From NCBI RefSeq assembly GCF_965641715.1, contig NZ_OZ282453.1: DNA of 64,000 nucleotides; one strand, 5' to 3'. The stretch is from Escherichia coli (GTDB taxonomy: Bacteria > Pseudomonadota > Gammaproteobacteria > Enterobacterales > Enterobacteriaceae). Shown here in pieces: positions 4,859-43,309 of the stretch. The notes under the pieces are model-generated. The model was given only the letters and a program-made list of their open reading frames with translations, did no database searches and had not been told where the DNA came from. How positions within the stretch are numbered: position 1 is the first letter of the stretch; the number at the start of each line of letters is the position of its first letter. Position numbers and translations under genes: made by a program.

Positions 4859-5278
4859 TGAACCACGATAGACAATGAGACAGGGCATCTCGCAATCTAT
4901 GGCAAACATCACTTCAGTTCTTTCTCATCGGGTGATGAAAACGCACTTCAGTCTGAAAGGAATATGAAAATGAGATCAACAGACACTCTATTTTATGACT
5001 CTGGGTAAAATGAATTGAGTAAGTGATCTAGCTTACGAACATTCAAATCAATTAAACATCAGAATAGATTTTATACTCAAGTATTTAATCTGGCTCTCTG
5101 TTTATTTAAATAATGTGGAAAGAGATTTTTCACAGGAGACATTATACAAAAAATATAAAATACAGCTATCGGTTGCCAAAGACACTATAAGCCTGGCAAA
5201 AAATATTACACAACATAAATGCTAATTGTTTATGCGGGCTTTGTATTGCTTTCTGTATCCTACAAATGAGTGAAATTT

Positions 5279-5995
5279 ATGAAAAAGGCTAAAATACTTT
5301 CTGGCGTATTATTACTGTGCTTTTCGTCACCATTAATTTCTCAGGCTGCAACACTTGACGTACGTGGTGGATATCGTAGTGGAAGCCACGCCTATGAGAC
5401 TCGACTCAAAGTCAGTGAGGGATGGCAAAATGGATGGTGGGCAAGCATGGAAAGTAATACCTGGAATACCATTCATGATAATAAAAAGGAAAATGCCGCA
5501 CTCAATGATGTTCAGGTTGAAGTTAATTACGCAATTAAACTTGATGATCAATGGACGGTGCGCCCGGGAATGTTAACGCATTTTAGCAGCAACGGCACAC
5601 GCTACGGACCCTACGTAAAACTGTCCTGGGACGCGACAAAAGATCTTAATTTTGGCATTCGCTATCGTTACGACTGGAAAGCTTACCGACAACAAGACTT
5701 ATCCGGTGATATGTCTCGTGATAACGTTCATCGTTGGGATGGATATGTCACTTACCATATTAATAGTGATTTCACCTTCGCATGGCAAACGACGCTATAC
5801 AGCAAACAGAACGATTATCGCTATGCAAACCATAAGAAATGGGCGACGGAAAATGCATTTGTTCTACAATACCATATGACGCCCGATATTACGCCATACA
5901 TAGAATATGACTACCTGGACCGTCAGGGTGTTTACAACGGCAGAGATAATTTATCGGAAAACAGTTATCGCATTGGTGTGTCATTTAAACTGTAG
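5279..5995 (+). CDS. nanC: N-acetylneuraminic acid outer-membrane channel NanC (238 aa from the ATG at 5279)
   Basis: MKKAKILSGVLLLCFSSPLISQA signal peptide, C-terminal ...YRIGVSFKL beta-barrel signature; divergent from fimB. Confidence 0.9.
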   Translation: MKKAKILSGVLLLCFSSPLISQAATLDVRGGYRSGSHAYETRLKVSEGWQNGWWASMESNTWNTIHDNKKENAALNDVQVEVNYAIKLDDQWTVRPGMLTHFSSNGTRYGPYVKLSWDATKDLNFGIRYRYDWKAYRQQDLSGDMSRDNVHRWDGYVTYHINSDFTFAWQTTLYSKQNDYRYANHKKWATENAFVLQYHMTPDITPYIEYDYLDRQGVYNGRDNLSENSYRIGVSFKL

Positions 5996-7185: not shown

Positions 7186-8166
7186 ATGAACGCAATAATA
7201 TCGCCTGATTATTACTATGTTCTTACTGTTGCTGGTCAGTCTAATGCCATGGCGTATGGCGAAGGACTGCCATTACCGGACAGGGAAGATGCGCCTCATC
7301 CCAGAATTAAACAATTAGCGAGATTTGCGCATACGCATCCCGGAGGCCCGTCATGTCACTTTAACGACATTATTCCACTGACTCACTGCCCACACGATGT
7401 TCAGGATATGCAGGGTTATCACCATCCTCTGGCAACGAATCATCAAACACAGTACGGCACCGTTGGCCAGGCACTGCATATTGCACGGAAATTACTGCCC
7501 TTCATTCCTGATAATGCAGGGGTTCTCATCGTTCCATGTTGCCGTGGCGGATCGGCTTTTACCGCGGGCAGCGAGGGGACATATTCAGAACGGCACGGAG
7601 CCAGCCATGATGCTTGTCGTTGGGGAACGGATACTCCGCTGTACCAGGATTTAGTCAGCAGAACGCGAGCCGCACTGGCAAAAAATCCGCAGAACAAATT
7701 CCTCGGCGTATGCTGGATGCAAGGCGAATTTGACTTAATGACCAGTGACTACGCGTCACACCCTCAACACTTTAATCATATGGTTGAAGCCTTTCGTAGG
7801 GATCTAAAACAATACCATTCTCAGCTGAATAATATTACTGACGCGCCGTGGTTTTGCGGCGATACCACCTGGTACTGGAAAGAAAATTTCCCTCATGCGT
7901 ATGAAGCTATTTATGGCAATTATCAAAATAATGTTTTAGCTAATATTATTTTCGTCGACTTCCAGCAACAAGGTGCAAGAGGGCTAACGAACGCGCCTGA
8001 TGAAGATCCGGACGATTTAAGCACGGGATATTACGGTTCAGCGTACCGGTCACCGGAGAACTGGACGACGGCACTGCGAAGCAGTCATTTCAGCTCAGCA
8101 GCCCGTCGGGGGATTATTTCTGACAGGTTTGTAGAAGCAATTTTGCAGTTTTGGCGCGAAAGGTGA
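7186..8166 (+). CDS. nanS: 9-O-acetyl-N-acetylneuraminate esterase NanS
   Basis: MNAIISPDYYYVLTVAGQSNAMAYGEGLPLPD... (SGNH-type GQSN motif); third gene of nanCMS; a hairpin at 7128-7149 separates it from nanM. Confidence 0.9.
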   Translation: MNAIISPDYYYVLTVAGQSNAMAYGEGLPLPDREDAPHPRIKQLARFAHTHPGGPSCHFNDIIPLTHCPHDVQDMQGYHHPLATNHQTQYGTVGQALHIARKLLPFIPDNAGVLIVPCCRGGSAFTAGSEGTYSERHGASHDACRWGTDTPLYQDLVSRTRAALAKNPQNKFLGVCWMQGEFDLMTSDYASHPQHFNHMVEAFRRDLKQYHSQLNNITDAPWFCGDTTWYWKENFPHAYEAIYGNYQNNVLANIIFVDFQQQGARGLTNAPDEDPDDLSTGYYGSAYRSPENWTTALRSSHFSSAARRGIISDRFVEAILQFWRER

Positions 8167-10301: not shown

Positions 10302-12533
10302 TTAGTTCTCAACCATCAATCGGGAAAGTTTGGCAAAAATCGAACTCTTACTACTTTCGCCACTCCTGAGCATATCCAGGGTGAAGCTATTGAGGTAAGC
10401 ACCAGTTAACGGGTGGTTAAATACATCTACGGCCTTACCTTGGGCGTCCCATATCAGCAGATTTTCTACCAGGTTAGGCCGTGCAATAGTAGGATTTGTA
10501 GGCTGAGCATCGCTTACCAGAACAAACACTCCATTCACATGCGGTTGCAGGTAAATATGGTGATGCTTCATCTTTTGAGTTTTGGTCAACGAGTCGTATT
10601 TCGAGCGGCCCGGTGATATCAGATAGGGCAGTACGTTTTGCTCCAATTTTGCTGAGCGGGTGATGGTATAGCCGTTAAATTTATCACCTTTACGCTCCGC
10701 CAGCGCTTTTTCTTGTTCCTGATAAGCATATGAATCGACGATATTAAATTGCGCTGGGCCAATCAGGCGCGGCACGCGGGAGCTGTTATAGGTGGTAAGC
10801 AGCACATCTGCTGTGTGGTCGTAGAGATAGAAGCTTTTATCGAATAATTTCTTTAGTCGTCCCAGAGCTGGATGATCAACAGATAGATACTCGAATTCAC
10901 CTTCAGCGATCCCGGTATCAACCACCCTAAGTTGGCCGCGCTCTATTTTTAGTTCAACATATCCAAGCAGGGAGAGATAGCTTTTTGTTTTGCGTACTGA
11001 ATAGGCGGTATAGTGCCCATCCGCCAATTCTGGCAGTGGTATGTTATGTTGATTGAGTAAGCTCTCTTTGAACCATAGTTCAGTTTTTGTTCGGCGTACC
11101 TTACTTTTCAATAAGGTAACTGCTGACTTGAGACGACTGTGTGGTTTCGTCAGTTCGATTTCGTATTGTGCAGGGTTGCTTACCAATTGTTCATTAATAA
11201 AATCAATCGCATCCAGCAACTTACGATCAATATTCATTCCTTGTAAAACCACAGGCACCGGTTGCTGATTTAGCCACCCTTGCAAACGATCTAGCTTAAG
11301 CTGGGTATAGGTATCCCAGTTGAGTTCAGGCTGTTTTCGGGCGTCGTCAAAGGCTGCATAGAAATCATTGTACTCAACAGATTCATTCTCTTGCTGCCGG
11401 ATGCTGTTGCTTCGTTCTTCCTCTACCGCATTGAGTACCAGAATAGATGTATTGGCAGGCAGCTCAGCAAATCCGGTTTGTCGGGAATGCTTAAGCGATG
11501 CAAGAGGCCAGAGTTGATACCCAGGGAACTGGTTGGCTAATGCATCAAAGAAATAAGCTTCTTGCGTGACGCTGAATTCGACGCCGTTATTAACCACCAA
11601 CAGCGTATTAGCCAGCTGTTGATCGAGGTCGGTAGCAAACTGATTGACCTCGTGTGTAGCCTGAAATGGGATAGGTTGATGGGGGATCTCTAGTTCACTG
11701 AGGCGCTCGCTGGCAGCATTCATGACCACGTTATAGGTATAGACCTGGCATTCGCCATAGCCGCTGCGCTCACGAAAAAAATCCAGTTTGCTATCACGGG
11801 CATCAAGTTTGCGCCGAGCTTTAAGCCGACGATTATCGATGTTAAACCACACGCTGGTATCATCCAGGGATAGGTGCATCTCATCCGCCGGTTCGACCAG
11901 GAATTTTCGTTTGTGCAAGGTAAAAGCGAGTTCATTATATTCTGAGGCATAAATGTCGAGCTCAAAGGCTTCCATCACCCCGATGCCTTTTTTTTGTGTG
12001 ACGGGCTGACTCAGACGAGCGTTAAGGTAAAGCGTTGAGTTGAAGTAAGTCGGCGATACCGAAAAGCGCTCACTGGCTTTTTCCAGCATTACCATTTTCA
12101 AATGCAGGCTAAATAATCCCTGAATCAGGCGAGATAGGTCATGATTTTCAGCGGTGAGTTGCTGACAAAGCGTTTCAATACGTTCTGCCAACGTCCTATG
12201 AGCCTGACTGTTCGGGTTAGTTGCAGGCGCCAGGAAAAAAAAGACGTGATGGTAATTTGGTAAGCAATGCAGTTCATATTTTACCTCCTGCCCGGCCTCC
12301 AGCCCAAGCTTCTGCCGCACGCAAGATTTTACCTCCTGATGAATTCGCGCATAGTAATCAGCGGATTTTTCTTTTCGCTCTTTAGTAAAGCGCTGAACCA
12401 TAAAGTCTATCGTATAGATATTAGATACAGGGGCCAATAGACGCTGGATGGTCGTCAGCTGATCTTCTTCAAGCTTGATCAAATTGGTTCGGGCAATCGG
12501 AGCATCCGTCAGTTCATTCAAATTAGGGATCAT
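10302..12533 (-). CDS. Uncharacterised 743-aa protein, downstream partner of the helicase-like gene
   Basis: Long ORF whose ATG overlaps the stop of the upstream gene (ATGA at 12530-12533); no nucleotide-binding or methyltransferase motif recognised by eye. Confidence 0.7.
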   Translation of the reverse strand: MIPNLNELTDAPIARTNLIKLEEDQLTTIQRLLAPVSNIYTIDFMVQRFTKERKEKSADYYARIHQEVKSCVRQKLGLEAGQEVKYELHCLPNYHHVFFFLAPATNPNSQAHRTLAERIETLCQQLTAENHDLSRLIQGLFSLHLKMVMLEKASERFSVSPTYFNSTLYLNARLSQPVTQKKGIGVMEAFELDIYASEYNELAFTLHKRKFLVEPADEMHLSLDDTSVWFNIDNRRLKARRKLDARDSKLDFFRERSGYGECQVYTYNVVMNAASERLSELEIPHQPIPFQATHEVNQFATDLDQQLANTLLVVNNGVEFSVTQEAYFFDALANQFPGYQLWPLASLKHSRQTGFAELPANTSILVLNAVEEERSNSIRQQENESVEYNDFYAAFDDARKQPELNWDTYTQLKLDRLQGWLNQQPVPVVLQGMNIDRKLLDAIDFINEQLVSNPAQYEIELTKPHSRLKSAVTLLKSKVRRTKTELWFKESLLNQHNIPLPELADGHYTAYSVRKTKSYLSLLGYVELKIERGQLRVVDTGIAEGEFEYLSVDHPALGRLKKLFDKSFYLYDHTADVLLTTYNSSRVPRLIGPAQFNIVDSYAYQEQEKALAERKGDKFNGYTITRSAKLEQNVLPYLISPGRSKYDSLTKTQKMKHHHIYLQPHVNGVFVLVSDAQPTNPTIARPNLVENLLIWDAQGKAVDVFNHPLTGAYLNSFTLDMLRSGESSKSSIFAKLSRLMVEN

Positions 12534-15500
12534 GAGACTTTTCCTTTAGTCGGCAACTTTTCTACACCCAGCAGGGTTAGTAACATTGGGTTAATGTTCA
12601 ATGTCATGCTCAGTTTCGAATTTTCCAGAGCTCGTCCGCTCTCTCGATTTTTGGGCTGATAGTACTGATAGTCGGTTTGCAACAGGTTAAGGTAGTGGAT
12701 CGTGTGATCCACGTTATCTTGCCACATCAGATTATTGGGGTTCTGGCTGTAGGCGACGTTCAGATAGACAAATCGAATGCGTTCGTAACGGCCTGACAGC
12801 ACAGCCTGAAGCTGTTTCTGTCCCTCTGTATCCGCCTTTTGGCTGGTGATATTACGGATCTGGCGAATCTTGTTGTTGCTTTTCTCAAGCGTTTCTTCTG
12901 CCCGCGTTAAATCATCCAACTGCGTCGCCCAGCGTTTAACGTCGATGCAGAGCAGGTCGTTACCCACTTCAATAAAGCGGTCAAAAAACTCATATACTAG
13001 CGGTTCAAGGCGTTCAAACACCTGTTGATCAGAAAGTGGGGTAACGCCATAGCTTTTTAGCACTTTATCGAAGAGATATTCACCGACATTGCCTTTGAGC
13101 AACGGAACTAGCCTGGGGTTGGGTACCCATTTTTTGAATGCCGTTTCCTGGATGTTGTCACATTCACGAATCAACTCGCCGACCAGGTTGCCGGGGGTAA
13201 AATCGACATCGTTTCTATACTGCGGAAAGAGGGTGAGCTCAGGCCGGTACTCTCTTGCGCCGCCAGCGAAATCCGACAGGGCGGAATAATCTCTGTGGAC
13301 AAGTCCATCCGGGCCGCGTTTGTGGCAAAGTAAAATAGTTTGATTGCCCTGATGGCGGTCGATAAACAGGGCGTGGTGGATTGATTGCATTTGCCGATTG
13401 GCGGCATACAAGGAATTAGCCTGAAGTTTTTCCAGCCAACGCATGGGATTGGTAAAGGAGTCAGAATCGCGGAATAAATTACACAATTCGAGATATTCAA
13501 GGTTGCCGGCGCGTACCTGATTTATCCAGTCGGTTTTCAGGACTCGCTTATGAACAGCATCGATGCGGCGACCATTTTCTACGATAGCCTGTTCAAACGC
13601 ATACCGCTGTTCTGCATCTCTAAATGACTGGTTCTGACTCAGCTTTTCGCACTCCTCCATTAGGCGGTGGTTAAGCAAGGACATGCTTTCTGATACTACC
13701 TCGTTACCGCTATCTTCACTGAGAGCGGCGAACTGGAATGCAACATTACGGAACACATCGCGGGGTAAAAAGATTTCTGTTTTCAATAGAGTGTCGCGAC
13801 GCTCGACTCGCCCTACGGCCTGCACGACGACTTTGAATAAGCTCATATCATGTTCGGCCATTAACAGGCGATAGTTTTCGCCGTGGGCGAAATTAACGTT
13901 GAAATCGGCCAGCTTGTGGACGGTAATATCGTCATCAGCGTAGTGTTTAAGCACGGTAACGTAGTTAGGTAATGTATTAAGATTGCCGCTGTTGTCCTTT
14001 ACTTCGCTGTAAAACGAGGAGTTGATGAGCACTAAGCGCTCAAAATCGACATCCAGACGTGGTGCATTGATATCATTAATATCGCCGTCATGGTATTTCA
14101 CAAAGTAGTTGAGGCCAGTGCCTGCACTTTTGTAGCTGCTCATAAATACCAGTACGGTATTGCTGTTCTTGAGATAGGTTTCTTGCCTAATATCTTCGAC
14201 ATTAGCCAGTGGTGAATCGAAAAAGACCAAATGGACTGTGTGACGCCCTTTGAATGGGGTAAAGGTCAGGATCTGGTCATGTTTCTTATCGTTATCCGTT
14301 TTATCATCGCACCGGGAGTGCATACCGTACTGCTGACGCCAGGCTGATTGATGAGTGCGCCAGGCGCTGATAAAGGCCCGCTTAAATGTCCCTGAAAGGG
14401 ACAAAATCAGGCTGTTTTTACCCTCGTAGGCGGCAAGCAATAACGCTTCAAGCTCCCGCTGGTACTGACGCCGTTTATAGGTATTTTTCAGGTCGTACTC
14501 CAGCGGTTTCTTCAGCGCGTCGAAAAAGTTGTCATACGTCCTGCGATAGATCTCACAATTTTGGTAGATATCGGTCAATTTTAACTGCTTATCATCGAAC
14601 ACCCTGAAGTCGACGTTGCGGATACTGGCTCTCAACGCGCGTAGTGCTCTAAGCGTATCGATATCTGTTTTTTTACGTTCAATGACTCGATAGCCAAGGT
14701 CACGGCTATAGCGCTCCAGGAAGTGACGATTGAAGTTACCGTTTTTGGTGTGGCTAAAACCACTGGTGGCGCTAAATCCAATCACTTTATTGTGCGTGCC
14801 CGTTAATAAACGTAGCAGCATGGCTTCAGGCAACTCTTGTACCAGATCCATCTCAAACGCCAGAATAATTGTACGCTCGGCTCCACTGTTCACGTAATTG
14901 AGTTCAACTATCGGCGTCATCGTGAATACGGTTTTGGGTTGCAGATAAGTGTAGAAATGATCAATCAACAAGTTTTTATCGGTGGTGCGATCGAAGATAT
15001 GTCGCACCACTCCAGCTACATTATTGGCTGCGTCAACAAATTGGCCCAAAGGTGTATTCTGGCTGCTGGAGTTATCCTGGCCACCATTTTTTACCCAGCG
15101 CTTAAAGTGTCGGTTGGTGATATCAGAACAGGCGGCGAGGATGACGGAGACCAATTGGAACAGATCGTGCAGTGTGGGATTGGTGTCGCTGGCATCATTT
15201 TCGACTTCGTAATATAGCTCGGTGCGCGTTATGTCGCCTTCGCTGTTGCGCATACGAATGCGTTTCAGCCCCTCTTCATTAACGTACATTTTGGGGTTAA
15301 AACTGAACACATTCCGGGTAATGGAAATGATGCGTTCGGCGGCGTCGCCGTTAACTTCGAATGCTCCTAACTGGTCGCGAAACATCTCCAGGATCGAGCC
15401 CAGCGTCGTACCGGGTGATAATTCGCACTTTTTCGCCAGTAGGTCTCGAAGGATGGTGATGAATTTGACCATCTCTTGCTCAAAGGTCGTTTGCGCTTCT

Positions 15501-17239
15501 TTGGGCTTTTTCCGGCGCTCCAGGCTGAGTACCGCATTGTGAATACGTCCCGCGACAGAGATAACATGCGCCAGATTATTTTCCTGTGTGATTAGCTTTA
15601 CATGGCATGTTTCTTCAAGACGGGTGTAGGCTTCATGTAGTTCATCAATGATTACCGTAAAGCGAATATTTTTCTGGCGAAAAGGGCAGTCTGGATTACG
15701 TCTGAAGTGTTCATCACGAAGATAAGCAACCTGCCCGGAATGGCCAGCTGCCGCAACGGTGCTGATCTGTGGATCTTTGGGAGCCAGCTTGCCACCAATC
15801 AGCAAGTCGAAACCTACGGACTCAAAATGCACGCCTTCACCTCGCTGACGAGGCGCCAGTCGGTAAGTTGATGTGTCGAACTTATTTGTAGTCATTAATA
15901 GCACCGACGGGCGGTACTGGCAAACTTCGAAAGGCAATACCTGTTTGATAAGCTCGAAGTAGACTTCGTGTACGCTTAGTTCAGACTTGCTTGGTTTTCG
16001 TGCTGTCTCCGCGTGTTGCATTCGCTCTTGGCGCGCCTGGAGCCCGCGACGAATGTACTCTTTAATGGAAGCTTTTTCACTATCTGGTCCAAATAGTAAT
16101 TTACAGGCTGACTCAATCGTATTGCGGATACTATGACGACAGTTTTTTAGCTGCTCTTCAAGAATTTCTCTTTCGTAGTTGTTATCCTGAGAACCGTATG
16201 TTGTCAGCTTTTTTAACTGCTCTTCACAGCGATCAATTTGTGAGACATGGTAATTGAGCGAACGCATTGCGCTGCCAATATATTTGCTACCTTTCGCCCC
16301 TTCGTACCACTGAATATAGCGGTCGCGATTTTTCAGGCCCGTGGCCCAGTCCATAAAGTCGAGATCGGCAATATCCTTACGAGAGAGAACGCAAATGAAT
16401 TCGCCGCCAGAAGCCAGAATTTTATCTTTCTGGCTGCTATCCAGGTCGATTTGTGATTTTTGCGGCGACATGAACAGCAGGTTGGTAAAGCCACCTTCGG
16501 GAAACAGATCATCTGACTTTTGTTTTTTGGCGAAACACTCCAGATATTCGACATACCCTTGAATTACGCCATAACTTTTGCCAAACCCCGTGCCATCGGA
16601 ACTGAAGATGACCTCCGCGCCATCACGTTCATGCACGTGGTAAAGTTGAGAAACTTGGGCGCGGCAAGCGTTAATATCTTCAACCAGCGTTATGTCAGGA
16701 ATTTGCCTGGAGATGAGATCTTGCAGATTATTATTGATAGTTATCTCTCCCACACGCTCACACTCACGGTAACTATTGATGGTTATTTGGCTGCTTTCGA
16801 GCAGAATCTTTTCCACTTGCATGGGAGCAAGATGCAAGGCTGTTGCAATTTCATTGATAGTATCTGATAGAGGTTCGTGTGGATTGCTAATCGTGAAGTG
16901 GTTTAGTACTGCTGCAACGGTATCTGGATGCAATGCTTTTCTGAGAGTGGGGAAGGTGAGGCTGTAATCGTATAGCGCCAAATCATTGTTTATCAGACAG
17001 CGAAACAGCTGTTTAGTGGGATCGCCTCCAGGACGGCTGGCAAATCCCAGGATTTTTGCCTGTTCGAGTCGATACAACAATGCTGCAGCATCGCGATCAG
17101 GTGAGTCAAATGCATCGTGAAGCTGCTGGCTAAATGGCATTGTGGCATTCAGCCGGTTATGGCTGACCAACGCGGAAAAGTGCTGACGTACCAAGGTAAG
17201 CAGCTTACAATCTTCCTTTATAGTCCAGTTTTTTCTCAT
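12530..17239 (-). CDS. Large SF2-helicase-like NTPase (about 1570 aa from the ATG at 17239; the ORF track begins at a GTG at 17275)
   Basis: Walker A DGTGFGKSYG, DExH-like Walker B VIIDELHEAY, motif III-like GFSATSGF, motif V-like SSYKSAGTGLNYF, motif VI-like QAVGRVERR, then about 400 aa of C-terminal sequence without recognisable motifs; GGGGAAG ribosome-binding site before the ATG at 17239. Confidence 0.7.
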   Translation of the reverse strand: MRKNWTIKEDCKLLTLVRQHFSALVSHNRLNATMPFSQQLHDAFDSPDRDAAALLYRLEQAKILGFASRPGGDPTKQLFRCLINNDLALYDYSLTFPTLRKALHPDTVAAVLNHFTISNPHEPLSDTINEIATALHLAPMQVEKILLESSQITINSYRECERVGEITINNNLQDLISRQIPDITLVEDINACRAQVSQLYHVHERDGAEVIFSSDGTGFGKSYGVIQGYVEYLECFAKKQKSDDLFPEGGFTNLLFMSPQKSQIDLDSSQKDKILASGGEFICVLSRKDIADLDFMDWATGLKNRDRYIQWYEGAKGSKYIGSAMRSLNYHVSQIDRCEEQLKKLTTYGSQDNNYEREILEEQLKNCRHSIRNTIESACKLLFGPDSEKASIKEYIRRGLQARQERMQHAETARKPSKSELSVHEVYFELIKQVLPFEVCQYRPSVLLMTTNKFDTSTYRLAPRQRGEGVHFESVGFDLLIGGKLAPKDPQISTVAAAGHSGQVAYLRDEHFRRNPDCPFRQKNIRFTVIIDELHEAYTRLEETCHVKLITQENNLAHVISVAGRIHNAVLSLERRKKPKEAQTTFEQEMVKFITILRDLLAKKCELSPGTTLGSILEMFRDQLGAFEVNGDAAERIISITRNVFSFNPKMYVNEEGLKRIRMRNSEGDITRTELYYEVENDASDTNPTLHDLFQLVSVILAACSDITNRHFKRWVKNGGQDNSSSQNTPLGQFVDAANNVAGVVRHIFDRTTDKNLLIDHFYTYLQPKTVFTMTPIVELNYVNSGAERTIILAFEMDLVQELPEAMLLRLLTGTHNKVIGFSATSGFSHTKNGNFNRHFLERYSRDLGYRVIERKKTDIDTLRALRALRASIRNVDFRVFDDKQLKLTDIYQNCEIYRRTYDNFFDALKKPLEYDLKNTYKRRQYQRELEALLLAAYEGKNSLILSLSGTFKRAFISAWRTHQSAWRQQYGMHSRCDDKTDNDKKHDQILTFTPFKGRHTVHLVFFDSPLANVEDIRQETYLKNSNTVLVFMSSYKSAGTGLNYFVKYHDGDINDINAPRLDVDFERLVLINSSFYSEVKDNSGNLNTLPNYVTVLKHYADDDITVHKLADFNVNFAHGENYRLLMAEHDMSLFKVVVQAVGRVERRDTLLKTEIFLPRDVFRNVAFQFAALSEDSGNEVVSESMSLLNHRLMEECEKLSQNQSFRDAEQRYAFEQAIVENGRRIDAVHKRVLKTDWINQVRAGNLEYLELCNLFRDSDSFTNPMRWLEKLQANSLYAANRQMQSIHHALFIDRHQGNQTILLCHKRGPDGLVHRDYSALSDFAGGAREYRPELTLFPQYRNDVDFTPGNLVGELIRECDNIQETAFKKWVPNPRLVPLLKGNVGEYLFDKVLKSYGVTPLSDQQVFERLEPLVYEFFDRFIEVGNDLLCIDVKRWATQLDDLTRAEETLEKSNNKIRQIRNITSQKADTEGQKQLQAVLSGRYERIRFVYLNVAYSQNPNNLMWQDNVDHTIHYLNLLQTDYQYYQPKNRESGRALENSKLSMTLNINPMLLTLLGVEKLPTKGKVS

Positions 17240-18364
17240 TCTTCTTCCCCTTAATATAAATGCACCTGCAACCACTCAGCCAAACGCTCAACGTCAAAAC
17301 CCGTAATCCATACTCCCACGCCAAAAACGTCTTCGATAAATATTCATCATATTTTCGAGGCACTTTTCAGAGATGCTCTTGGCAAGACGGGACTCAGGGG
17401 GTAAACCTTCCTGTAGTAAATTGCTTAGCGTCTGCTTAACTTTCCCGAGCGTATTTTTTCAACTACGGCAGCAAATGAGACGGTCTTAAAACCGTGCAGG
17501 ATAGGCCATATCTACAACGTGTTTACTACTTGAGCACACATTGTGATATGGCAGTCACCTTTCCGACAAATGGTGAACCGTCCCTGACGAACAACAACAT
17601 TAACGCATATCTCTTCATCGCCTGATCAAAGTAGCTGCCAACTATTATTCGCCTCAACAATGAGTTTTTTTACTAACGATTTCTACTACCTTCCCAAAGC
17701 GACCACAACAATCAAAAATATTGTTTACACATCAGTCTCATATCACCGGAGTAAGTTGACTATTGATAAACCATTTCAAGATATTAATAGCTGATCATAC
17801 TTCCCCAAAGTGCTTATTTATAGCGAAGGCAAATAGCATAAACTGAAGGGCGAATTGTTAAATCATACCGTGAATGAGCTGAAGAACAAGCATAAAAATT
17901 ATATCATTTACATGACTTATGTGTTTTAGTTAAATGATAAATAGGCAGTATAAAATCCAATTCAACAGCCGAGTTCAAGCGATTAATTTTTTGATGAGCT
18001 TATCAAGCACGAGCAGCGATACCAGCAAATCCACTTGGTTGCTTGAAGAATATGACTCCTTCAACACATAGCAGATTATCTCCGCCGTTGGTAGAGAACC
18101 GTTCACCGTTGTTAGTCAACAGTTATAAATTTATATTAATGATTAGAAGAATCTATCTCGGGGTAGATCATCAACATTACTTATTCTAAACCACGTTACA
18201 CATGATCTCCGGGGCAGCGAAGTCATCAAAAAAGAGTATTATAAAACTCCGCCCTTAAGGAGAAAGGTTTCCTGGCGGTTGTAATGCCGTTGACGATACA
18301 GCGCACAACACGGATATAAACAACCATTTGATTGATTAATATCTGAAGGGCTGTTTATATTTAA

Positions 18365-18635
18365 TCAAGCTAACGATTCATTAATCTTTACATAGAGATG
18401 AGGTAATGTGGCCTCATTGCGATTCACATCCAGATAATCCGCCCCCCACTGCAGCATCTGCCGCTCTACCGCATCTCTCGGCCATAGCCCCGACTCAATC
18501 AACGACCTACACGCCATTGCCCTGAAACCATGCCCACAAAAAGCAGCTCTCAATTTCCATTCATGCTTTATACCTTTTCTAATAGGCTTTTGCTTCAGGC
18601 TTAGCCGAACGAACCTTCACATCACTCAAAGCCAT
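18365..18635 (-). pseudogene. Internally deleted P4-type integrase remnant
   Basis: N-terminal piece MALSDVKVRSAKPEAKAY-stop (18579-18635) and C-terminal piece ...GHGFRAMACRSLIESGLWPRDAVERQMLQWGADYLDVNR (18365-18553), both matching the intact integrase at 41841-43109. Confidence 0.7.
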
Positions 18636-18766
18636 GATGAATACCCTTTCAAGGGTTTTGTGTGGGTACAAACATTATCCAATCGGGATATACCCGCAGC
18701 TGTAGCTGTACCCGCATCAGTAAGTTGATGTAGATTCGAAAAATAGCGGAAACCCTGTGTGACACT

Positions 18767-18821
18767 GATTTCAGGCACAAAAAAAGACGTCTGTTGACGT
18801 CTATTGATGGTGCGAAGGCCG
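18767..18821. repeat. Degenerate copy of the leuX terminator and tRNA 3' end (attachment-site remnant)
   Basis: GATTTCAGGCACAAAAAAAGACGTCTGTTGACGTCTAT...TGGTGCGAAGGCCG compared with 43261-43325 GATTTCAGGCATAAAAAAAGACCTCAGTTGAGGTCTAT...TGGTGCCGAAGGCCGG; the hairpin keeps pairing through compensatory changes. Confidence 0.65.
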
Positions 18822-18937
18822 CACCGCGATTCCAGACTCAACAATATGAAATCAATGGATTTTTAAAAATGCGAAGTTACTTTGTATACTCACATGTATA
18901 CTCAGTACCATTTCTTAAGAAATCAATTCATTCAATA

Positions 18938-19744
18938 CTACTCATCATCGTCTTCCACTGGTTCCAGCACATCAAGCGCAACTCGCACCATAGCGATAGA
19001 ACCAATACGAATGAAAGCATCTTCTCCATCTTCGTCGGTTATCATAAAACGATCCGTGGTTTCAGGCTCGCAATCCAGCGCGTCAAAAAAAGCATTCAAC
19101 TGGCCGATATCATCCGTCTCTTCGTTTTGCGGCGCATCTGGCTCAACACTCAGTGGAATCACTGGTCCGCCGTTTACCAGCGTGATATGGACATTAAAAT
19201 AATCGTCTTCGTAGGCATCATCCTCTTCGTCAACGATTGGCCGCAGACCATCAGAAAGGAACTGATGAAATACCACTTCACGCATATTTAACGCATAACG
19301 ATACTCGGAAGAATCAAAAACGAAGAAGCGTTCTATGTTTGGGGCGTTTTTTTCCTGAAAATAATAATAAAACCTCCGCTTATCCGCTGCTGAAATGGGC
19401 AACAGCAAATAGTCCCTCTGCCCCTGTAGCCAAAGTTTTACGGTCCAGAGACCGCTATCCATTTCAATGCCGCTTGTGGCTATAGCCTCAAGATCTTCAT
19501 CAGTTTTACGACGCTTTTTGCGGAAGTCGTTTATCAACCGATCGCTTTCCGGGAACACTACGTTTAGAGGCTTATCCAGAGCATTACATATCGCCTGTGC
19601 GAGACCCAGCTTTGCAGCAACCTTCCCGGTTTCGATACGCTGAATTTGTTGCTGGCTGGTGCCGACCATAAACGCCAGCTCGCGCTGGGTGATAGATAGC
19701 TGGGTACGGAGCTGTTTGATGTTGTTCTGTAACATGGCATCCAT
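18938..19744 (-). CDS. XRE-family helix-turn-helix protein with a long acidic C-terminal region
   Basis: N-terminal HTH (LSITQRELAFMVGTSQQQIQRIETGK); C-terminus ends ...LDVLEPVEDDDE. Confidence 0.55.
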   Translation of the reverse strand: MDAMLQNNIKQLRTQLSITQRELAFMVGTSQQQIQRIETGKVAAKLGLAQAICNALDKPLNVVFPESDRLINDFRKKRRKTDEDLEAIATSGIEMDSGLWTVKLWLQGQRDYLLLPISAADKRRFYYYFQEKNAPNIERFFVFDSSEYRYALNMREVVFHQFLSDGLRPIVDEEDDAYEDDYFNVHITLVNGGPVIPLSVEPDAPQNEETDDIGQLNAFFDALDCEPETTDRFMITDEDGEDAFIRIGSIAMVRVALDVLEPVEDDDE

Positions 19745-19849
19745 CCTTCAGAAGGAATAGAAAGTGCCATTAAAACACAAAATTGAGTATAAACACATAA
19801 TCGTGTTTACACTCACTAATCAACACCCTTGAACGAAAAGAAAATCTCT

Positions 19850-20125
19850 TCATCGTTCTTCTCTGGTATGCCAGAGATCAACTATATAAATGTCATTGTC
19901 ACGAAGTTCGTAGTGAACCTCATAGTCATCAAATAACACTTTTCGGACTTCCCGAGGTTCATACCGAGTCTGCTGTACACCAATTGCCGGATGTGCTGTA
20001 AGACCAGCACAACCAGTAATCAGGCGATCCAAAACGTCATCGGCGTGCTGGCGGCTATACTGAAGGGCGAAACGATAGATACGCTCAAGGTCATCCTGAG
20101 CTTTAAGCGTCCAGTAAATTTCCAT
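19850..20125 (-). CDS. ParE/RelE-superfamily toxin (91 aa)
   Basis: Small protein directly downstream of a ribbon-helix-helix-type antitoxin gene with a 3-bp gap; ParE-like size and sequence character. Confidence 0.6.
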   Translation of the reverse strand: MEIYWTLKAQDDLERIYRFALQYSRQHADDVLDRLITGCAGLTAHPAIGVQQTRYEPREVRKVLFDDYEVHYELRDNDIYIVDLWHTREER

Positions 20126-20128
20126 TTA

Positions 20129-20377
20129 TCAGGATTTCTTTAAGCGATTAGCAAAATCCACCATGTCCGAGTGGCTCATCACACGACCGGCATCCACATC
20201 ATCAAGACCGGCCTGGATGCTCTGGTGACGCCGTTCTCTTTCGGCCAGCATACTGGTCAACGCTTCCTTAATAATCCAGCTCTTAGAACGGTCCAACTCA
20301 ATTGCCAGATTCTCAACAGCAGCGGCCAATTCAATAGGTATCTGTGCGCTGATGGTTTGTTTAGTAAGCGAACCCAT
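20129..20377 (-). CDS. ParD/CopG-type antitoxin (from the ATG at 20377; the ORF track starts at 20401)
   Basis: MGSLTKQTISAQIPIELAAAVENLAIELDRSKSWIIKEALTSML...; GAGG ribosome-binding site before 20377. Confidence 0.6.
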   Translation of the reverse strand: MGSLTKQTISAQIPIELAAAVENLAIELDRSKSWIIKEALTSMLAERERRHQSIQAGLDDVDAGRVMSHSDMVDFANRLKKS

Positions 20378-20453
20378 AGGGATTACCTCGTTTAATAACA
20401 TTTAATAACTCCTATTAATATTAGCATAGAGGTGCCTATAAAAACATCACATC

Positions 20454-21311
20454 TCATTTTGCAGGCAACATCCCGGGAAAGTGCTTCGCCACGATATCAT
20501 TCATCTTCTCCACCAGATCCAAACGTTTGAAAGTGATATGCCCACTGCCCTTCTGAAAGTAGCGAATAGTGAACAACTCATCTTCGAAAATCTGCTGATG
20601 CGGATTATCGCGCACAAAATCCATAAACCGGATGGAGACATCATGCCGGTTATCGGGAATGGCCTTCCCATCCAGCAGATAGAACATCCGTTCCAGATCG
20701 GCAAGCTGATCGCGCCGCCAGCCCCAGTTCAGGCTGTAGCCCCATCTGTCATGCTTCACCAGATTGTTAACGATAATCTTCTTACCGAAATAACAGGGAT
20801 TATTGGTTTTGTAGTCCCAGCTCAATCCCTTAAATACATTGATAATCCCACGTTCGAAAACATCCTGCTTATTGTGGTGAAGTTGTTCAAAGGTACTCAG
20901 GATGTTGGCTTCGCTAATCGCCGGGGGATCGCCCTCCTCCAGATTCTTTGCCCACTGACTGCGAGCTTCGGCATCCATCAGAGTCAACATACCGGACTTC
21001 AGCATGAGATCGCGCCAGATGCTGCGGTCGATATTGCGGGTGATCACCGGCATCGCTTTGTCGGTTGGCTGCATCAGCCAGCAGTCAAAGGCATATCCAT
21101 TCCGCATTGCCCAGGTTCCAGCCATATCACCGCCAATACTGGATGTCAGGCTGGAGATATCATCCAGTTTTTGGATTAACGTCGCTATCTGGTTCAGTGC
21201 ACTATCACGTCCTGTGACGATGCGCTCAATACTGGTCGAGCAAATTAGTTCGTTATGATCGGTTAAGACTTCAGCTTCTGTTTGCATAATCTTTTGTCCG
21301 TATAAAAGCAA
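20454..21311 (-). CDS. Hypothetical protein in the YeeW-like position downstream of the CbtA-like toxin
   Basis: ORF and position in the cryptic-prophage backbone only. Confidence 0.45.
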   Translation of the reverse strand: MLLYGQKIMQTEAEVLTDHNELICSTSIERIVTGRDSALNQIATLIQKLDDISSLTSSIGGDMAGTWAMRNGYAFDCWLMQPTDKAMPVITRNIDRSIWRDLMLKSGMLTLMDAEARSQWAKNLEEGDPPAISEANILSTFEQLHHNKQDVFERGIINVFKGLSWDYKTNNPCYFGKKIIVNNLVKHDRWGYSLNWGWRRDQLADLERMFYLLDGKAIPDNRHDVSIRFMDFVRDNPHQQIFEDELFTIRYFQKGSGHITFKRLDLVEKMNDIVAKHFPGMLPAK

Positions 21312-23666: not shown

Positions 23667-24620
23667 TCAACCACGGGATAATCTTGTTTCTATTCCCTGA
23701 ACCCTTTCATCTATTAGTCTTTCAATAACGGATATTTTATCTGACTTGTAAAATTTAACCAGAAAATCCAGACGTTCCTTATGCATATCACTGATAGACT
23801 CCCGTTCCCGTTTTTCAGAAAGTTTACGTCTGAAGTTTTTTTGGTAAAACGCTTTATTTATTTTCTTTACAGCATTCTGCTGGAGATCATCATCCGCTGA
23901 CCATAAATCCAGCATGGCATAAACTGCGTGATAGGTTTCTACACTATTCAGTGGTTCCGGAATCTGAACGGGGTCTAAATGGTTTCCTGTATTACCGCCG
24001 TGCTCTTTCTGGAATTTATTAATGTAATTATAAGCCCATGTACAGACTTCGCTATTATCCTCAGTAAGCCAGCGTAATTTTATTCTCTGATGTTCATTTG
24101 CTCTCCAGAATACAAGCCTCTCATATAGCCACTGTCTCATCAACGGTGCCTGATTAGTCTCAATATTAATATAGTCCAGTAATGCAACGATGAGTGAGTA
24201 TCTTTCGCTATGGCTTGCAGGAGAATCTGTTATTCCGGCTTTCTGATACCAGTTAGTGTTTAAATTCGTGCCCAGCTTATTGTTAATTGACTCCATACAG
24301 CGGTAATCAAGACACATCACACCCCATAGCCAGAACGTCGCTCTTTCATTTTCTTTTAACCAACTAAAATATTTCTCCGGCAGAAGTGTCGTATTAATTG
24401 CCAGTTCCAGTGAGCGAATAAAATTGCTCCGCTGAATGGGGTCGGGATACCCGGCCTCGAGTGCTGTATTAATAATTCTCTCCGAAAGGGATGTATCTGG
24501 ATTGTTCCCGTCAAACGCGAATTGATTTGCTCCCTGAATGTTTTTCCTGATGTACCAGAAGAGGAACCTGCTGGTTCGGATGTCCTTCACTGCTATTGAT
24601 GAGCGCACATTAACGGCCAT
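23667..24620 (-). CDS. Hypothetical protein (317 aa)
   Basis: ORF only; Trp/Tyr-rich, no motif recognised. Confidence 0.45.
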   Translation of the reverse strand: MAVNVRSSIAVKDIRTSRFLFWYIRKNIQGANQFAFDGNNPDTSLSERIINTALEAGYPDPIQRSNFIRSLELAINTTLLPEKYFSWLKENERATFWLWGVMCLDYRCMESINNKLGTNLNTNWYQKAGITDSPASHSERYSLIVALLDYINIETNQAPLMRQWLYERLVFWRANEHQRIKLRWLTEDNSEVCTWAYNYINKFQKEHGGNTGNHLDPVQIPEPLNSVETYHAVYAMLDLWSADDDLQQNAVKKINKAFYQKNFRRKLSEKRERESISDMHKERLDFLVKFYKSDKISVIERLIDERVQGIETRLSRG

Positions 24621-29216: not shown

Positions 29217-30194
29217 TTAACGTGCCCGCTGTTTTATCGGCTCAAAAAACATATCCCAGAGATGTTCAGCCATACCCTCGTTAGTGAGCAAGGTATCCCT
29301 TGAGTAGCCAGGGCTGAAGACGCCCATTGATGGGCGAAAACCAAGGTTCTGGCCGTTATTGTCAATGGTTAAGATTTCATTGTAAGCATTGCCAATCACG
29401 CCATCCTGGCTATAACCAATATCGCCCATCCCCATATTTCGCCCGCTATTACGCCAGATTGCACATTGACCTACTTTGCTTCCCCCAATGTAGATCGCAC
29501 AAGTGAAGGCATCTGCGTCACGCTTATTAAAATCGACCTCTAACCCGGCATGGCGTTTTTTGAGTTCAGTCAGCGAGCCTTCAAAATAACGGGCGACATA
29601 TTCAAAACCGTCACGGCAGGCACGATCCTTATCAAGATCGGTAAAACGTTTTGGCAGTGAAAGGTTGCTCGAGCGTGGTGTAAAAACGGTATCCGTCGCC
29701 TGAAGCATTGGATTAGCCGGAGCTGGGGCGTGCACAATCTGTTGCGGCTTTTTCGCTTCCAAATTGGCAATAGCGCGGGAAACGGCATCGACAACCTGAA
29801 CATAGCCTTCATCATGGCTGGCAAATTTATCAATTGGCTTACCGTCAACAGTTGCCGCCAGAATGCGGCCAAACGGTAACATCTTCCACGCGCATTCTCT
29901 TAAGATCACCGGAATGACCACCGCCTCGCCCCGGCTATGTCGCTCCAGAGCGTTGGTCATTTCTACCTGATAGCAATAATCAGAAGCGATAAAATCACTG
30001 CTAATCAGCAACAGGATGATGTCTGCCTGAGAAAAGTAATGATCTATTTGGTTCTCAAACTCTTGTCCTGGAATGATGCGACGATCATGCCATGTCGTGA
30101 TCTTGCCCATGCGTTTCAGGGGGGAAAGATGCTTCTCAAGCTCATTGCGCAGAGCTTCGTCTGCATGAGAATAGGAAAAAACAAGAGAGGTCAT
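29217..30194 (-). CDS. TIR-domain protein with an uncharacterised C-terminal domain (325 aa)
   Basis: N-terminal TIR signature LVFSYSHADEALRNELEKHL...IILLLISSDFIASDYCYQVEMTNALER...VVIPVILREC; divergent from hsdM. Confidence 0.65.
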   Translation of the reverse strand: MTSLVFSYSHADEALRNELEKHLSPLKRMGKITTWHDRRIIPGQEFENQIDHYFSQADIILLLISSDFIASDYCYQVEMTNALERHSRGEAVVIPVILRECAWKMLPFGRILAATVDGKPIDKFASHDEGYVQVVDAVSRAIANLEAKKPQQIVHAPAPANPMLQATDTVFTPRSSNLSLPKRFTDLDKDRACRDGFEYVARYFEGSLTELKKRHAGLEVDFNKRDADAFTCAIYIGGSKVGQCAIWRNSGRNMGMGDIGYSQDGVIGNAYNEILTIDNNGQNLGFRPSMGVFSPGYSRDTLLTNEGMAEHLWDMFFEPIKQRAR

Positions 30195-30409
30195 AGTGCG
30201 TAAGATGCTCCGATAGGGATGTGGAAAATACCGTTATTCTGCGCCGATAAGTGTAAAAGAGTTATCCCCCCTTACCACAAGGTATTGATGCGGAAATCAG
30301 TCCTACATCTTGGTATCGCTCTGACGTCAGGGTATGATCTCTAACAATTTCCCCGATTTTACACAACCTAGACACCAAACCAGGATCAGATGATTTTTTT
30401 GAGGTTTTA

Positions 30410-32116
30410 ATGGACAACGCTGAACAGCAATTTCTGAACGATCTGGATACTAAGTTCTGGAAAGCCGCAGACAAGCTACGCGCCAATATGGACGCAGCCA
30501 ACTACAAGCATGTGGTACTTGGGCTTATCTTTCTGAAGTATGTTTCAGATGCCTTTGACGCACGCCAGAAGGAACTGAAAGGACTGTTTGAAGACAAGTC
30601 CAACCCGGACAACATTTACGCGCTGTCTCGTGACGATTACGACACAGAAGAGGCGTACCAGCAGGCGATCGCAGAAGAGCTGGAAGTTCAGGATTACTAC
30701 ACTGAGAAAAACGTCTTCTGGGTACCCAAACTGGCTCGCTGGGAAACGCTTAAAACCAATGCTGCTCTACCTGTAGGGACGGTTCTGGGGAAAGACGATA
30801 GCGGCAAAGATATCGTCATGACGTCAGTATCGAAGCTGATTGATATCGCTCTGGATACTATCGAAAACAGCAACCCGAAACTGAAAAACATCCTTAACTG
30901 TATCGGACACTATCAGCTTGGTAACGACCTGCTAATTAGCCTGATTAACGTTTTCTCCGATACCAGTTTCAGCGAACCCAAATACAATGGCGTGAAGCTC
31001 AATTTGAAGAGCAAAGATATTCTCGGCCACGTTTACGAATACTTCCTTGGTCAGTTTGCACTGGCGGAAGGCAAACAGGGCGGCCAGTATTACACGCCGA
31101 AAAGCATCGTTACGCTGATTGTTGAAATGCTCCAGCCCTACAATGGCCGCGTGTATGACCCGGCGATGGGATCTGGCGGTTTCTTCGTTTCCAGCGATCG
31201 CTTTATCGAAGCACACGCTGATGAAAAGCATTACAACGCCGCTGAACAAAAACGCAATATCTCCGTTTACGGGCAGGAGTCCAACCCTACCACCTGGCGT
31301 CTGGCTGCGATGAATATGGTGATTCGCGGTATTGATTTTAACTTCGGTAAACAAAACGCCGATACGTTCCTGAACGACCAGCACCCGGATTTACGTGCCG
31401 ATTTTGTTATGGCGAACCCGCCATTCAACATGAAGGAGTGGTGGAACGCCAAGCTGGAAAACGACGTGCGCTGGAAATACGGCACGCCGCCTCAGGGCAA
31501 CGCCAACTTTGCGTGGATGCAGCACATGATCCACCACCTGGCGCCAAAAGGCTCGATGGCGCTGCTGCTGGCGAACGGTTCGATGAGCTCTAACACCAAC
31601 AACGAAGGCGAGATCCGCCGCAACCTGATCGAAGCCGATCTGGTCGAGTGCATGGTCGCGCTGCCAGGTCAGTTGTTTACCAACACCCAAATCCCGGCCT
31701 GTATCTGGTTCCTGACCAAAGACAAATCCGGCGGTAACGGCAAAGCACACCGTAAAGGCGAAGTGTTGTTTATCGACGCGCGTCAGATTGGCTTTATGAA
31801 AGACCGCGTGCTGCGTGATTTTAGCCGTGAAGATATCGCCAGAATTGCTGATATCTTCCACGCCTGGCAGACGGATAAAGGCTATGAAGACGAAGCTGGA
31901 TTCTGTTTCTCCGCAACGCTGGAAGATATCCAGAAAAACGACTTTGTGTTGACCCCTGGGCGCTATGTCGGTGCGGCCGAGCAAGACGAAGACGATGAGC
32001 CTTTTGCCGAGAAGATGGCACGACTGACGGCGCAGCTGAAAGATCAGCTGGAAGAGAGCGCGAAGCTGGAAGCACAGATTAAGGCGAATCTGGGGGGGCT
32101 GGGTTATGAGTTCTAA
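30410..32116 (+). CDS. hsdM: Type I restriction-modification methyltransferase subunit HsdM
   Basis: N6-adenine methyltransferase motifs: DPAMGSGGFF (AdoMet binding) and NPPF (MANPPFNM). Confidence 0.9.
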   Translation: MDNAEQQFLNDLDTKFWKAADKLRANMDAANYKHVVLGLIFLKYVSDAFDARQKELKGLFEDKSNPDNIYALSRDDYDTEEAYQQAIAEELEVQDYYTEKNVFWVPKLARWETLKTNAALPVGTVLGKDDSGKDIVMTSVSKLIDIALDTIENSNPKLKNILNCIGHYQLGNDLLISLINVFSDTSFSEPKYNGVKLNLKSKDILGHVYEYFLGQFALAEGKQGGQYYTPKSIVTLIVEMLQPYNGRVYDPAMGSGGFFVSSDRFIEAHADEKHYNAAEQKRNISVYGQESNPTTWRLAAMNMVIRGIDFNFGKQNADTFLNDQHPDLRADFVMANPPFNMKEWWNAKLENDVRWKYGTPPQGNANFAWMQHMIHHLAPKGSMALLLANGSMSSNTNNEGEIRRNLIEADLVECMVALPGQLFTNTQIPACIWFLTKDKSGGNGKAHRKGEVLFIDARQIGFMKDRVLRDFSREDIARIADIFHAWQTDKGYEDEAGFCFSATLEDIQKNDFVLTPGRYVGAAEQDEDDEPFAEKMARLTAQLKDQLEESAKLEAQIKANLGGLGYEF

Positions 32117-33461
32117 GTTTCGGAAAGTAAAACTATGTGAAATCCTCTCATTTAAGACAGGTAAACTCGACTCGAATGCAGCAGTAGATAATGGTTGTTA
32201 TCCTTTTTTTACTTGCTCGCCAGTTACACTTTCGATTAATACGCATGCTTTTGACACTGAAGCAGTATTATTAGCTGGTAATAACGCAAATGGGGTATTT
32301 TCAGTAAAATACCACAATGGTAAGTTTAATGCTTACCAAAGAACATATGTTATTACTCCTCTGGATAATTCAGCGGTCAATGTGAAATGGCTTTATTTTA
32401 GAATAAAATATGTTACGTCAGAATTACAATCAATGTCAGTTGGCACTGCAACAAAATTCTTAACAAAAAAGATTTTGGATTCATTTGAGATTGAACTGCC
32501 AACTTTTGAAGAGCAAACATATCAAGCTCAGATTTTATGGGCGTTACAGGATAAATTAGCTAATAATGAAGCTATAAACCAAACTCTCGAACAAATGGCG
32601 CAAGCCCTGTTCAAAAGCTGGTTTGTCGATTTTGAACCGGTAAAAGCCAAAATGGCAGCGTTGGAAGCGGGCGGTTCGCAGGAAGACGCGACACGTGCCG
32701 CCATGACGGCAATTTCCGGGAAAGATGCTGATGCGTTGGTGGTTTTTGCGCGTGAACATCCTGAGCAATATGCCGAGTTAAAAGCCACGGCAGAACTGTT
32801 TCCGTCTGCGGTGCAGGAAAGTGAGTTGGGGGCGATTCCTAAAGGATGGGGGGTGGCGTCAATTAGTGAGATGGGGAAGATTACTTGTGGCAAAACTCCG
32901 TCAAAAAAAGAACCAAAGTATTACGGTGGTGATGTTCCATTCATAAAGATACCAGATATGCATGGGCAACTCTTTGTGCTTAAAACTAATGAATATTTAA
33001 GCGAAGTCGGTTCAAAGTCGCAACTAAAAAAACTTGTGCCCGCTAACTCTATCTGTGTTAGTTGTATAGCTACTATTGGTGTTGTTTCTATCACCAATGA
33101 ACCATCTCATACCAATCAGCAAATAAATTCGGTTACACCTTATAAGAGTTCATTACTTTATTATCTTTATTTTTGTATATTGGGATTGAAAGATCATCTT
33201 CACGTTTTAGGTAGCGCAGGTAGTGCAACCTTAAATGTCAATACGTCTACTTTCTCAGGAATTAAAATCGCTCAGCCTGATGCTAAAGTATTGGAGTTAT
33301 TTCATGCCAAATGTACACAATTATTTAATGAGATTAAATCGCTCTGTGTACAAACTGAATCACTTGCACAACTACGAGACACCCTCCTCCCCAAACTCCT
33401 CTCCGGAGAAATTACGTTACCGGATGCCGAGGAAATAGCCAAGGAAGCTGACTATGTTTAA
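32106..33461 (+). CDS. hsdS: Type I restriction-modification specificity subunit HsdS
   Basis: Overlaps the hsdM stop; two AT-rich variable segments alternating with GC-richer conserved segments, as expected for two target-recognition domains. Confidence 0.85.
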   Translation: MSSKFRKVKLCEILSFKTGKLDSNAAVDNGCYPFFTCSPVTLSINTHAFDTEAVLLAGNNANGVFSVKYHNGKFNAYQRTYVITPLDNSAVNVKWLYFRIKYVTSELQSMSVGTATKFLTKKILDSFEIELPTFEEQTYQAQILWALQDKLANNEAINQTLEQMAQALFKSWFVDFEPVKAKMAALEAGGSQEDATRAAMTAISGKDADALVVFAREHPEQYAELKATAELFPSAVQESELGAIPKGWGVASISEMGKITCGKTPSKKEPKYYGGDVPFIKIPDMHGQLFVLKTNEYLSEVGSKSQLKKLVPANSICVSCIATIGVVSITNEPSHTNQQINSVTPYKSSLLYYLYFCILGLKDHLHVLGSAGSATLNVNTSTFSGIKIAQPDAKVLELFHAKCTQLFNEIKSLCVQTESLAQLRDTLLPKLLSGEITLPDAEEIAKEADYV

Positions 33462-34647: not shown

Positions 34648-34662
34648 CACAGGACGTTACCG

Positions 34663-43298: not shown

Positions 43299-43309
43299 TT
43301 ACATACTTT

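Follow-up and report, generated by a model that had tools for sequence, protein, structure and literature searches.

A predicted phage 434-type autoregulated repressor with an acidic C-terminal domain at the attR end of a leuX island of Escherichia coli

The locus at the leuX island

The window, the whole 64-kb stretch of DNA analysed here, corresponds to the Escherichia coli leuX island region, between the fim/nan genes and a tRNA-Leu(CAA) gene (43310-43394). Read from the tRNA, its minus strand exhibits an intact integrase gene, a variable region with a type I restriction-modification system, and then the gene series DUF932-RadC-CbeA-CbtA-DUF4942-CopG-ParE-HTH. The last of these genes, encoding a helix-turn-helix (HTH) protein, is the subject of this study. 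Past its stop codon lie, in this order, a remnant of leuX, a terminator-like hairpin, the remains of a second P4-type integrase gene, and an older module. The features at this end of the island are the following.

18938-19744, minus strand: coding sequence of the HTH gene, an ORF of 268 codons with its stop codon at 18938-18940
18808-18829, minus strand: degenerate attR (TGGTGCGAAGGCCGCACCGCGA), a copy of the 3' end of leuX (43310-43332) with one indel, about 108 bp past the HTH stop codon
18778-18802, minus strand: intrinsic terminator-like hairpin (AGACGTCAACAGACGTCT) followed by T7, just past the att remnant

The att remnant aligns with better-preserved copies found at the same position in orthologous loci, one of which (L002) exhibits a perfect 20-nt leuX repeat 143 nt past the HTH stop codon. 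Because of its indel, the remnant was missed by leuX searches of the window that allowed mismatches only, and it is visible by alignment with the orthologous loci. The hairpin just beyond it likely marks the end of the HTH transcript. In a Serratia locus (L027), the HTH gene is the last gene before one of three tandem att copies. This locus, from Serratia sp. AKBS12, is a tandem island array: the leuX att core occurs at 291-305, 7896-7910 and 10927-10941, each time followed by a repeat of about 276 nt, and the HTH gene lies within the middle unit of about 3 kb.

The order of genes is well conserved. In 24 enterobacterial loci representing about 20 genera, the DUF932-RadC-CbeA-CbtA-DUF4942 block precedes the HTH gene on the same strand, and in about 24 no further gene lies between the HTH gene and attR. 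DUF4942 is found directly upstream of the HTH gene in 20 of the 24 loci. The copG-parE pair (19850-20401 in the window, minus strand) stands between DUF4942 and the HTH gene in eight of them and is absent from 14; from this distribution it behaves as an optional cassette. The first-pass annotation had located the HTH gene at an island junction, right after an attachment-site remnant, as the first gene of a newer module. The junction is confirmed in that the gene lies between two modules and beside the att remnant. Its direction of transcription and the synteny make it the last gene, not the first, of the leuX-proximal CP4-like module. The HTH gene appears to be an optional terminal cargo of a CP4-like island at leuX, carried just inside attR.

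Several other features of the region are worth recording. Of the second P4-type integrase gene, an internal deletion has left on the minus strand the first 18 codons (MALSDVKVRSAKPEAKAY), which run into a stop codon (18579-18635), and a C-terminal fragment (18365-18553); most of the gene is gone. The older module contains two overlapping minus-strand ORFs, at 10302-12533 (743 aa) and 12530-17275 (1581 aa), which RefSeq lists as hypothetical proteins. Neither exhibits a Pfam match, and the 1581-aa protein has no PADLOC match; the two could form an uncharacterised two-gene system. A 317-aa ORF upstream of DUF932 (23667-24620, minus strand) also gave no Pfam match. Between the conserved block and tRNA-Leu (about 29500-43400), the window differs by about 2.7 kb from E. 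coli A30 (L001), the complete genome nearest to it; the tRNA starts at 43310 in the window, and about 40554 was expected from the A30 annotation.

The HTH gene and its product

The ORF has an ATG at 19744, and translation probably begins at the second ATG (19735), which would yield a product of 265 aa. We prefer the second ATG because a GAAGGA sequence is found 8 nt upstream of it, because RefSeq uses it, and because orthologues begin with MLQNN. The RefSeq entry in question, WP_112826254.1 from E. coli A30, is an identical protein annotated from ATG 19735. Comparison with orthologues from other genera gives dN/dS values of 0.07-0.12 overall, with 0.01-0.05 for the HTH part and 0.08-0.16 for the C-terminal domain. 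The HTH gene is a real gene under purifying selection. Its product comprises two domains, with the following features.

19562-19720, minus strand: XRE/Cro-C1 HTH domain, aa 9-61 (Pfam PF01381, HTH_3)
19631-19660, minus strand: recognition helix TSQQQIQRIE, aa 29-38, near-invariant in the family and paired with TTQQSIEQLE of the phage 434 repressor
18941-19501, minus strand: family-specific C-terminal domain, aa 82-268 (about 185 aa), two tandem beta-beta-alpha-beta-beta-beta repeats with acidic loops and tail
18941-19234, minus strand: most acidic stretch, aa 171-268, containing the invariant D237-x-D239-G-E241 hairpin and the EPVEDDDE tail

Both sequence features that the first-pass annotation had pointed out are borne out by the analysis. 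The XRE-type N-terminus matches Pfam HTH_3 with an E-value of 1.7e-13 (50.8 bits against a gathering cut-off of 23). The C-terminus is indeed rich in aspartate and glutamate up to its final EPVEDDDE: within residues 171-268, 31 are Asp or Glu and three are Lys or Arg, and for the protein as a whole the pI is 4.36 and the net charge about -25.

The DNA-binding domain

An AlphaFold2 (AF2) model of the full-length protein (pLDDT 85.6, pTM 0.82) predicts a compact five-helix fold for the HTH domain (helices at 9-15, 20-27, 31-38, 46-56 and 60-63), most of the domain scoring above 90 in pLDDT. Among proteins of solved structure, the best sequence match to this domain is the phage 434 repressor (E-value = 1.7e-5), and the alignment pairs VGTSQQQIQRIETGK of the HTH protein with VGTTQQSIEQLENGK of the 434 repressor. 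According to this alignment, Gln31 and Gln32 are equivalent to Gln28 and Gln29 of 434, and Arg36 stands in place of Gln33. In the 434 repressor, Gln33 contacts position 4 of the operator. The matches to antitoxin HTH families of NCBIfam all remain below their cut-offs; the best is TIGR03070 (Y4mF), with 38.6 bits against 71.65, and weaker ones are MqsA, PezA and HipB.

The recognition helix is conserved to an unusual degree. In an alignment of 29 sequences, with identities down to about 27-28%, the columns from T29 to E38 are invariant. Among 124 full-length representatives of clusters at 50% identity, 85 exhibit the helix motif when conservative changes are allowed, and the rest are mostly one position off.

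The C-terminal domain

The C-terminal domain modelled alone gives a pLDDT of 81.9 and a pTM of 0.77. Its two halves align in register (hhalign, E-value = 5e-4, probability 31%), weakly supporting an internal duplication. Acidic residues gather in four places: the inter-repeat linker modelled with low confidence (about 165-180), a loop of the second repeat (198-213), the D237-x-D239-G-E241 hairpin, and the C-terminal tail. This acidity is a property of the family, with a median excess of acidic over basic residues of 26 in the last 190 aa of 149 family representatives. The invariant residues of the domain are D96, F143, N153, F162, D237, D239, E241 and R246, with no serine or lysine among them. 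An autocleaving repressor of the S24 type was also considered and rejected, there being no Peptidase_S24 match at E-value≤1 and no conserved Ser/Lys dyad.

Searches with the C-terminal domain region against Pfam, NCBIfam, PHROGs and PADLOC returned matches to the HTH region only. A sequence-profile search of the PDB with the domain gave no match at E-value≤10, and a Foldseek search of the PDB and BFVD gave nothing at E-value≤0.001. A tentative structural match was also noted, to the M. tuberculosis protein Rv3208A/TB9.4 (PDB 7rur and 7rus; DUF3107/TB9.4-like fold). The match spans one repeat only, a sequence relationship is undetectable in PDB-sequence and Pfam searches, and the function of Rv3208A is itself uncharacterised.

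Family and distribution

A profile built from the C-terminal domain alone collects 676 clusters at 50% identity, 426 of them at E-value≤1e-10. In nearly every profile match the protein is about 270 aa long and the domain spans residues 83-270 or so. Practically all of the 150 best representatives, and every member checked at its N-terminus, have it fused to HTH_3. In a database of clusters at 90% identity the full-length protein finds 108 relatives, almost all of them 260-290 aa long and alignable over their entire length. Most short matches begin inside a conserved VFPG motif and resemble truncated gene calls. Alternative domain architectures were sought among ten members of unusual length, for which a Pfam scan gave HTH_3 or nothing. 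A metagenomic member of 464 aa (P0106) continues for about 190 aa beyond the usual C-terminus, and this additional part has a weak, sub-threshold match to DUF6998.

Members are found in Enterobacterales, Xanthomonadales, Sphingomonadales, Acetobacteraceae, Bradyrhizobium, Rickettsiales and Acidobacteria. Among 5426 complete E. coli genomes, 71 carry the gene, always on the chromosome and in a single copy, and the adjoining CP4-like DNA has matches in 1862. A tblastn search for the C-terminal domain in 50,697 phage records gave no match, and one in 72,556 plasmid records gave a single 29-aa fragment.

Outside the enterobacteria, family genes are found in tRNA-linked islands. Their immediate neighbour is usually a recombinase gene, for a tyrosine integrase in L011/L012, L034 and L036 and for a serine recombinase in L008, L040 and L041. 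Restriction-modification, TIR or STAND-like genes are often abundant in these islands. One member, that of L006, seems to be placed among core genes. No toxin-like or other neighbour is conserved across the family loci. A partnership with DUF4942 was considered and rejected, the pairing being limited to Enterobacterales and missing in distant members.

Our search of the literature found nothing on the family, on DUF4942/CbtA islands with this HTH gene, or on the operator motif described below. EnrR, an island-encoded protein of the XRE superfamily found in the literature, proved to be an unrelated protein of 90 aa.

Predicted operators, promoter and terminators

The 105-bp region upstream of the HTH gene contains a perfect palindrome of the form ACAC-N6-GTGT and, 4 bp from it, a second copy with one mismatch. 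We propose these as operators of the HTH protein, and refer to them as O1 and O2.

19793-19806, no strand: predicted operator O1, perfect palindrome ACACGATTATGTGT (ACAC-N6-GTGT), starting 62 nt upstream of ATG 19744
19775-19788, no strand: predicted operator O2, imperfect palindrome ACTCAATTTTGTGT with one mismatch, 4 bp from O1
19769-19777, minus strand: candidate extended -10 element TGTTTTAAT, inferred by reading the sequence
19784-19815, minus strand: palindrome around O1 with 13-bp arms, followed by a U-rich tract (RNA hairpin of -17.2 kcal/mol, z = -5.25)

O1 is the only exact ACAC-N6-GTGT of the 64-kb window, where 0.56 would be expected by chance. The association of this motif with the family gene is clearest across loci: in 30 loci, 27 exact sites fall within the 150 bp upstream of each gene (4.5 kb altogether), versus a single one in the remaining 580 kb. 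The upstream sites come from independent lineages, namely Enterobacterales, Rhodanobacter, Sphingomonas, Bradyrhizobium and metagenomic members at 32-36% identity. Many family promoters exhibit two or three sites, and in several of them the left half-site lies within TTGACAC, that is, in the -35 hexamer. The tandem arrangement of O1 and O2, 18 bp from start to start, recurs in L011. As a negative control, four members whose recognition helix is altered were searched for the operator motif in their upstream regions, which did not contain it. This result, like the enrichment across loci, fits a co-variation of helix and operator. The amino acid difference from the 434 repressor may also bear on specificity: Arg36, if it reads a G:C pair, would account for ACAC instead of ACAA at operator position 4.

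The GTGT half of O2 overlaps the TG of the candidate extended -10. This element is kept in nearly all enterobacterial orthologues, with GTGTTTTAATG as the string shared by their upstream regions. A scan for consensus sigma-70 promoters found none on the minus strand upstream of the HTH gene and left the extended -10 unreported. Operators so placed over a promoter have the layout expected for negative autoregulation. In the ParE-carrying variants, O1 is embedded in the palindrome with 13-bp arms; the O1 palindrome may serve as the terminator of the upstream copG-parE genes, in addition to its operator role or instead of it. An Rfam search over positions 17200-20500 of the window yielded nothing meaningful.

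A proposed mechanism and its alternatives

From the computed domain identities, helix and operator conservation, synteny and purifying selection, we infer DNA binding, repression, an oligomeric state and a function for the C-terminal domain, and propose that the product of the HTH gene is a transcriptional repressor of the phage 434 type under negative autoregulation, with a probability of roughly 0.65. Negative autoregulation through tandem operators is the best supported reading because the conservation of helix and operator, the placement of the operators and the negative control combine in its favour. The XRE HTH domain, probably as a dimer, would bind the 14-bp ACAC-N6-GTGT operators, and the occupancy of O1 and O2 over the gene's own promoter would block RNA polymerase, so holding the protein at a set level. 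For the C-terminal domain, the most likely role is in dimerisation and in cooperativity at the tandem sites, since it is fused to one type of HTH in every checked member and the operators are themselves in tandem. It may also act as a signal sensor, or its acidic loops may damp non-specific DNA binding; the extreme and conserved acidity is not demanded by a simple dimerisation role. Because a repressor of its own promoter only would lack an obvious benefit, this account is missing the protein's true regulon or the true function of the C-terminal domain. Nor does it account for the near-invariance of helix and operator across phyla. The regulator suggested by the first-pass annotation is supported, as an XRE-type HTH regulator. 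Control of the adjoining restriction genes is not supported, the sole exact operator in the window being in the HTH gene's own promoter.

The HTH protein could instead govern the maintenance or excision of the island, having a recombinase or an excision function as its main target and autoregulating only secondarily. After circularisation of the island the HTH gene would lie directly upstream of attP-int, and its promoter, or repression at it, could govern integrase expression. The tyrosine integrase and serine recombinase genes beside the non-enterobacterial members agree with such a role, as does the position of the enterobacterial gene, last before attR. In Bradyrhizobium jicamae (L040, about 5247-5382), three operators fill the 137-bp region between the divergent resolvase and HTH genes, an arrangement that suggests co-regulation of the serine recombinase and the family gene there. 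In our window, however, no exact operator is found near the intact integrase gene or anywhere else except at the HTH gene's own promoter, and a terminator-like hairpin comes after the att remnant. Moreover, the presence of the gene in 71 E. coli genomes versus 1862 for the CP4-like block indicates that the island backbone can do without it. We consider excision control unlikely as the main function of the present protein. As an ancestral or additional role it is plausible; control of an island recombination module may have been the ancestral function, given that family genes elsewhere adjoin recombinase genes and sometimes share an operator-bearing intergenic region with them. A broader and more speculative view, to which we give little weight, takes the family as a widespread set of island-borne repressors of one shared DNA specificity, near-invariant in helix and operator across phyla, with the C-terminal domain as a new sensor/effector module. 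If it were true, the expression of recombinases or defence islands could be coupled to some signal, and unrelated islands could cross-regulate each other, or DNA-binding proteins could be drawn to the family's members as acidic decoys.

The acidity also raises the idea, put forward in the first-pass annotation, of a DNA-mimic or anti-defence protein. The C-terminal domain would then act as a mimic or decoy for restriction enzymes or nucleoid proteins, and the HTH domain would merely set the protein's own level. What speaks for this is charge alone, strong and conserved in the family. No similarity of sequence or fold to known mimics was found, and no HTH-less member was confirmed, the HTH fusion being present in every member checked. 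Anti-restriction genes are usually found in phages and plasmids; the collections of 50,697 phage and 72,556 plasmid records gave, as described above, no match and one short fragment, respectively. Taxa that lack H-NS also have family members, a further point against a mimic. A mimic is improbable on these grounds, and the computational evidence points to a conventional repressor, the outcome that the same annotation had named as contradicting its proposal. The proximity of parE invites yet another explanation, in which the HTH protein is a third, regulatory component of the CopG-ParE system, comparable to PaaR, or is itself an antitoxin. The HTH gene does follow parE in the same orientation, at a distance of 105 bp, and the sub-threshold NCBIfam matches are to HTH domains of antitoxins (Y4mF, MqsA, PezA, HipB). 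Yet copG-parE adjoins the HTH gene in only eight of the 24 enterobacterial loci and in none of the distant family loci, ParE is already paired with its own CopG antitoxin, and the HTH gene has its own predicted operator and promoter, with a candidate terminator separating it from parE. We find this explanation hardly credible.

Under the preferred reading, the HTH protein is an ordinary XRE autoregulated repressor with an uncatalogued, well-conserved C-terminal domain. The interest of the family is threefold. Its C-terminal domain marks a large group of proteins (the 676 clusters at 50% identity) with no Pfam entry, no solved homologue of the whole domain and no literature that we could find. 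The occurrence of one near-invariant helix and operator across bacterial classes is unusual for repressors of mobile elements and offers a ready protein-DNA pair. Where defence-rich islands are integrated at tRNA genes, the family also tracks their ends and recombinase genes, and so may be of use as a marker of island boundaries; its members are candidate regulators of island behaviour.

Comparison with known systems

The closest known counterpart is the cI repressor of phage 434. Both proteins begin their recognition helix with a Gln-Gln pair, and both have, in the case of the HTH protein by in silico prediction, 14-bp operators made of 4-bp half-sites and a 6-bp spacer and arranged in tandem over a promoter. 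The operator of 434 is reportedly ACAA-N6-TTGT (Aggarwal et al. 1988), compared with ACAC-N6-GTGT here, so that the two differ by A to C at position 4, and in the proteins by Gln33 to Arg36. The LexA/S24-like autocleavage domain of 434 cI is absent from the HTH protein. Unlike the cI gene, the HTH gene has no divergent cro-like partner, the family was not found in phages, and its place is by the attR of a CP4-like island, not within the immunity region of a phage.

Mimics of the Ocr and ArdA types have in common with the HTH protein a strong acidity, and similarity of sequence or fold was not found. PaaR, of the PaaR-PaaA-ParE system, is likewise an HTH regulator encoded beside a ParE pair on an E. 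coli mobile element. The gene order there is regulator-antitoxin-toxin, in contrast to copG-parE-HTH here, where the link is facultative (8 of 24 loci).

SetR, ImmR and Stl (of SaPI), master repressors of integrative elements, have an XRE-type HTH joined to a C-terminal domain and are encoded by chromosomally integrated mobile elements, as is the HTH protein. The C-terminal part of the latter exhibits no relationship to theirs in sequence or predicted fold, and, unlike for ImmR, no gene for a partner protease (ImmA) was seen in the loci examined. The HTH gene also differs from those of SetR, ImmR and Stl in its location, which is the att-distal end of the island and not a regulatory module, and in that no exact operator was found ahead of other island genes in the window. 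The likeness to Stl goes somewhat further: the HTH protein is also about 265 aa long, and its non-DNA-binding part could be a sensor.
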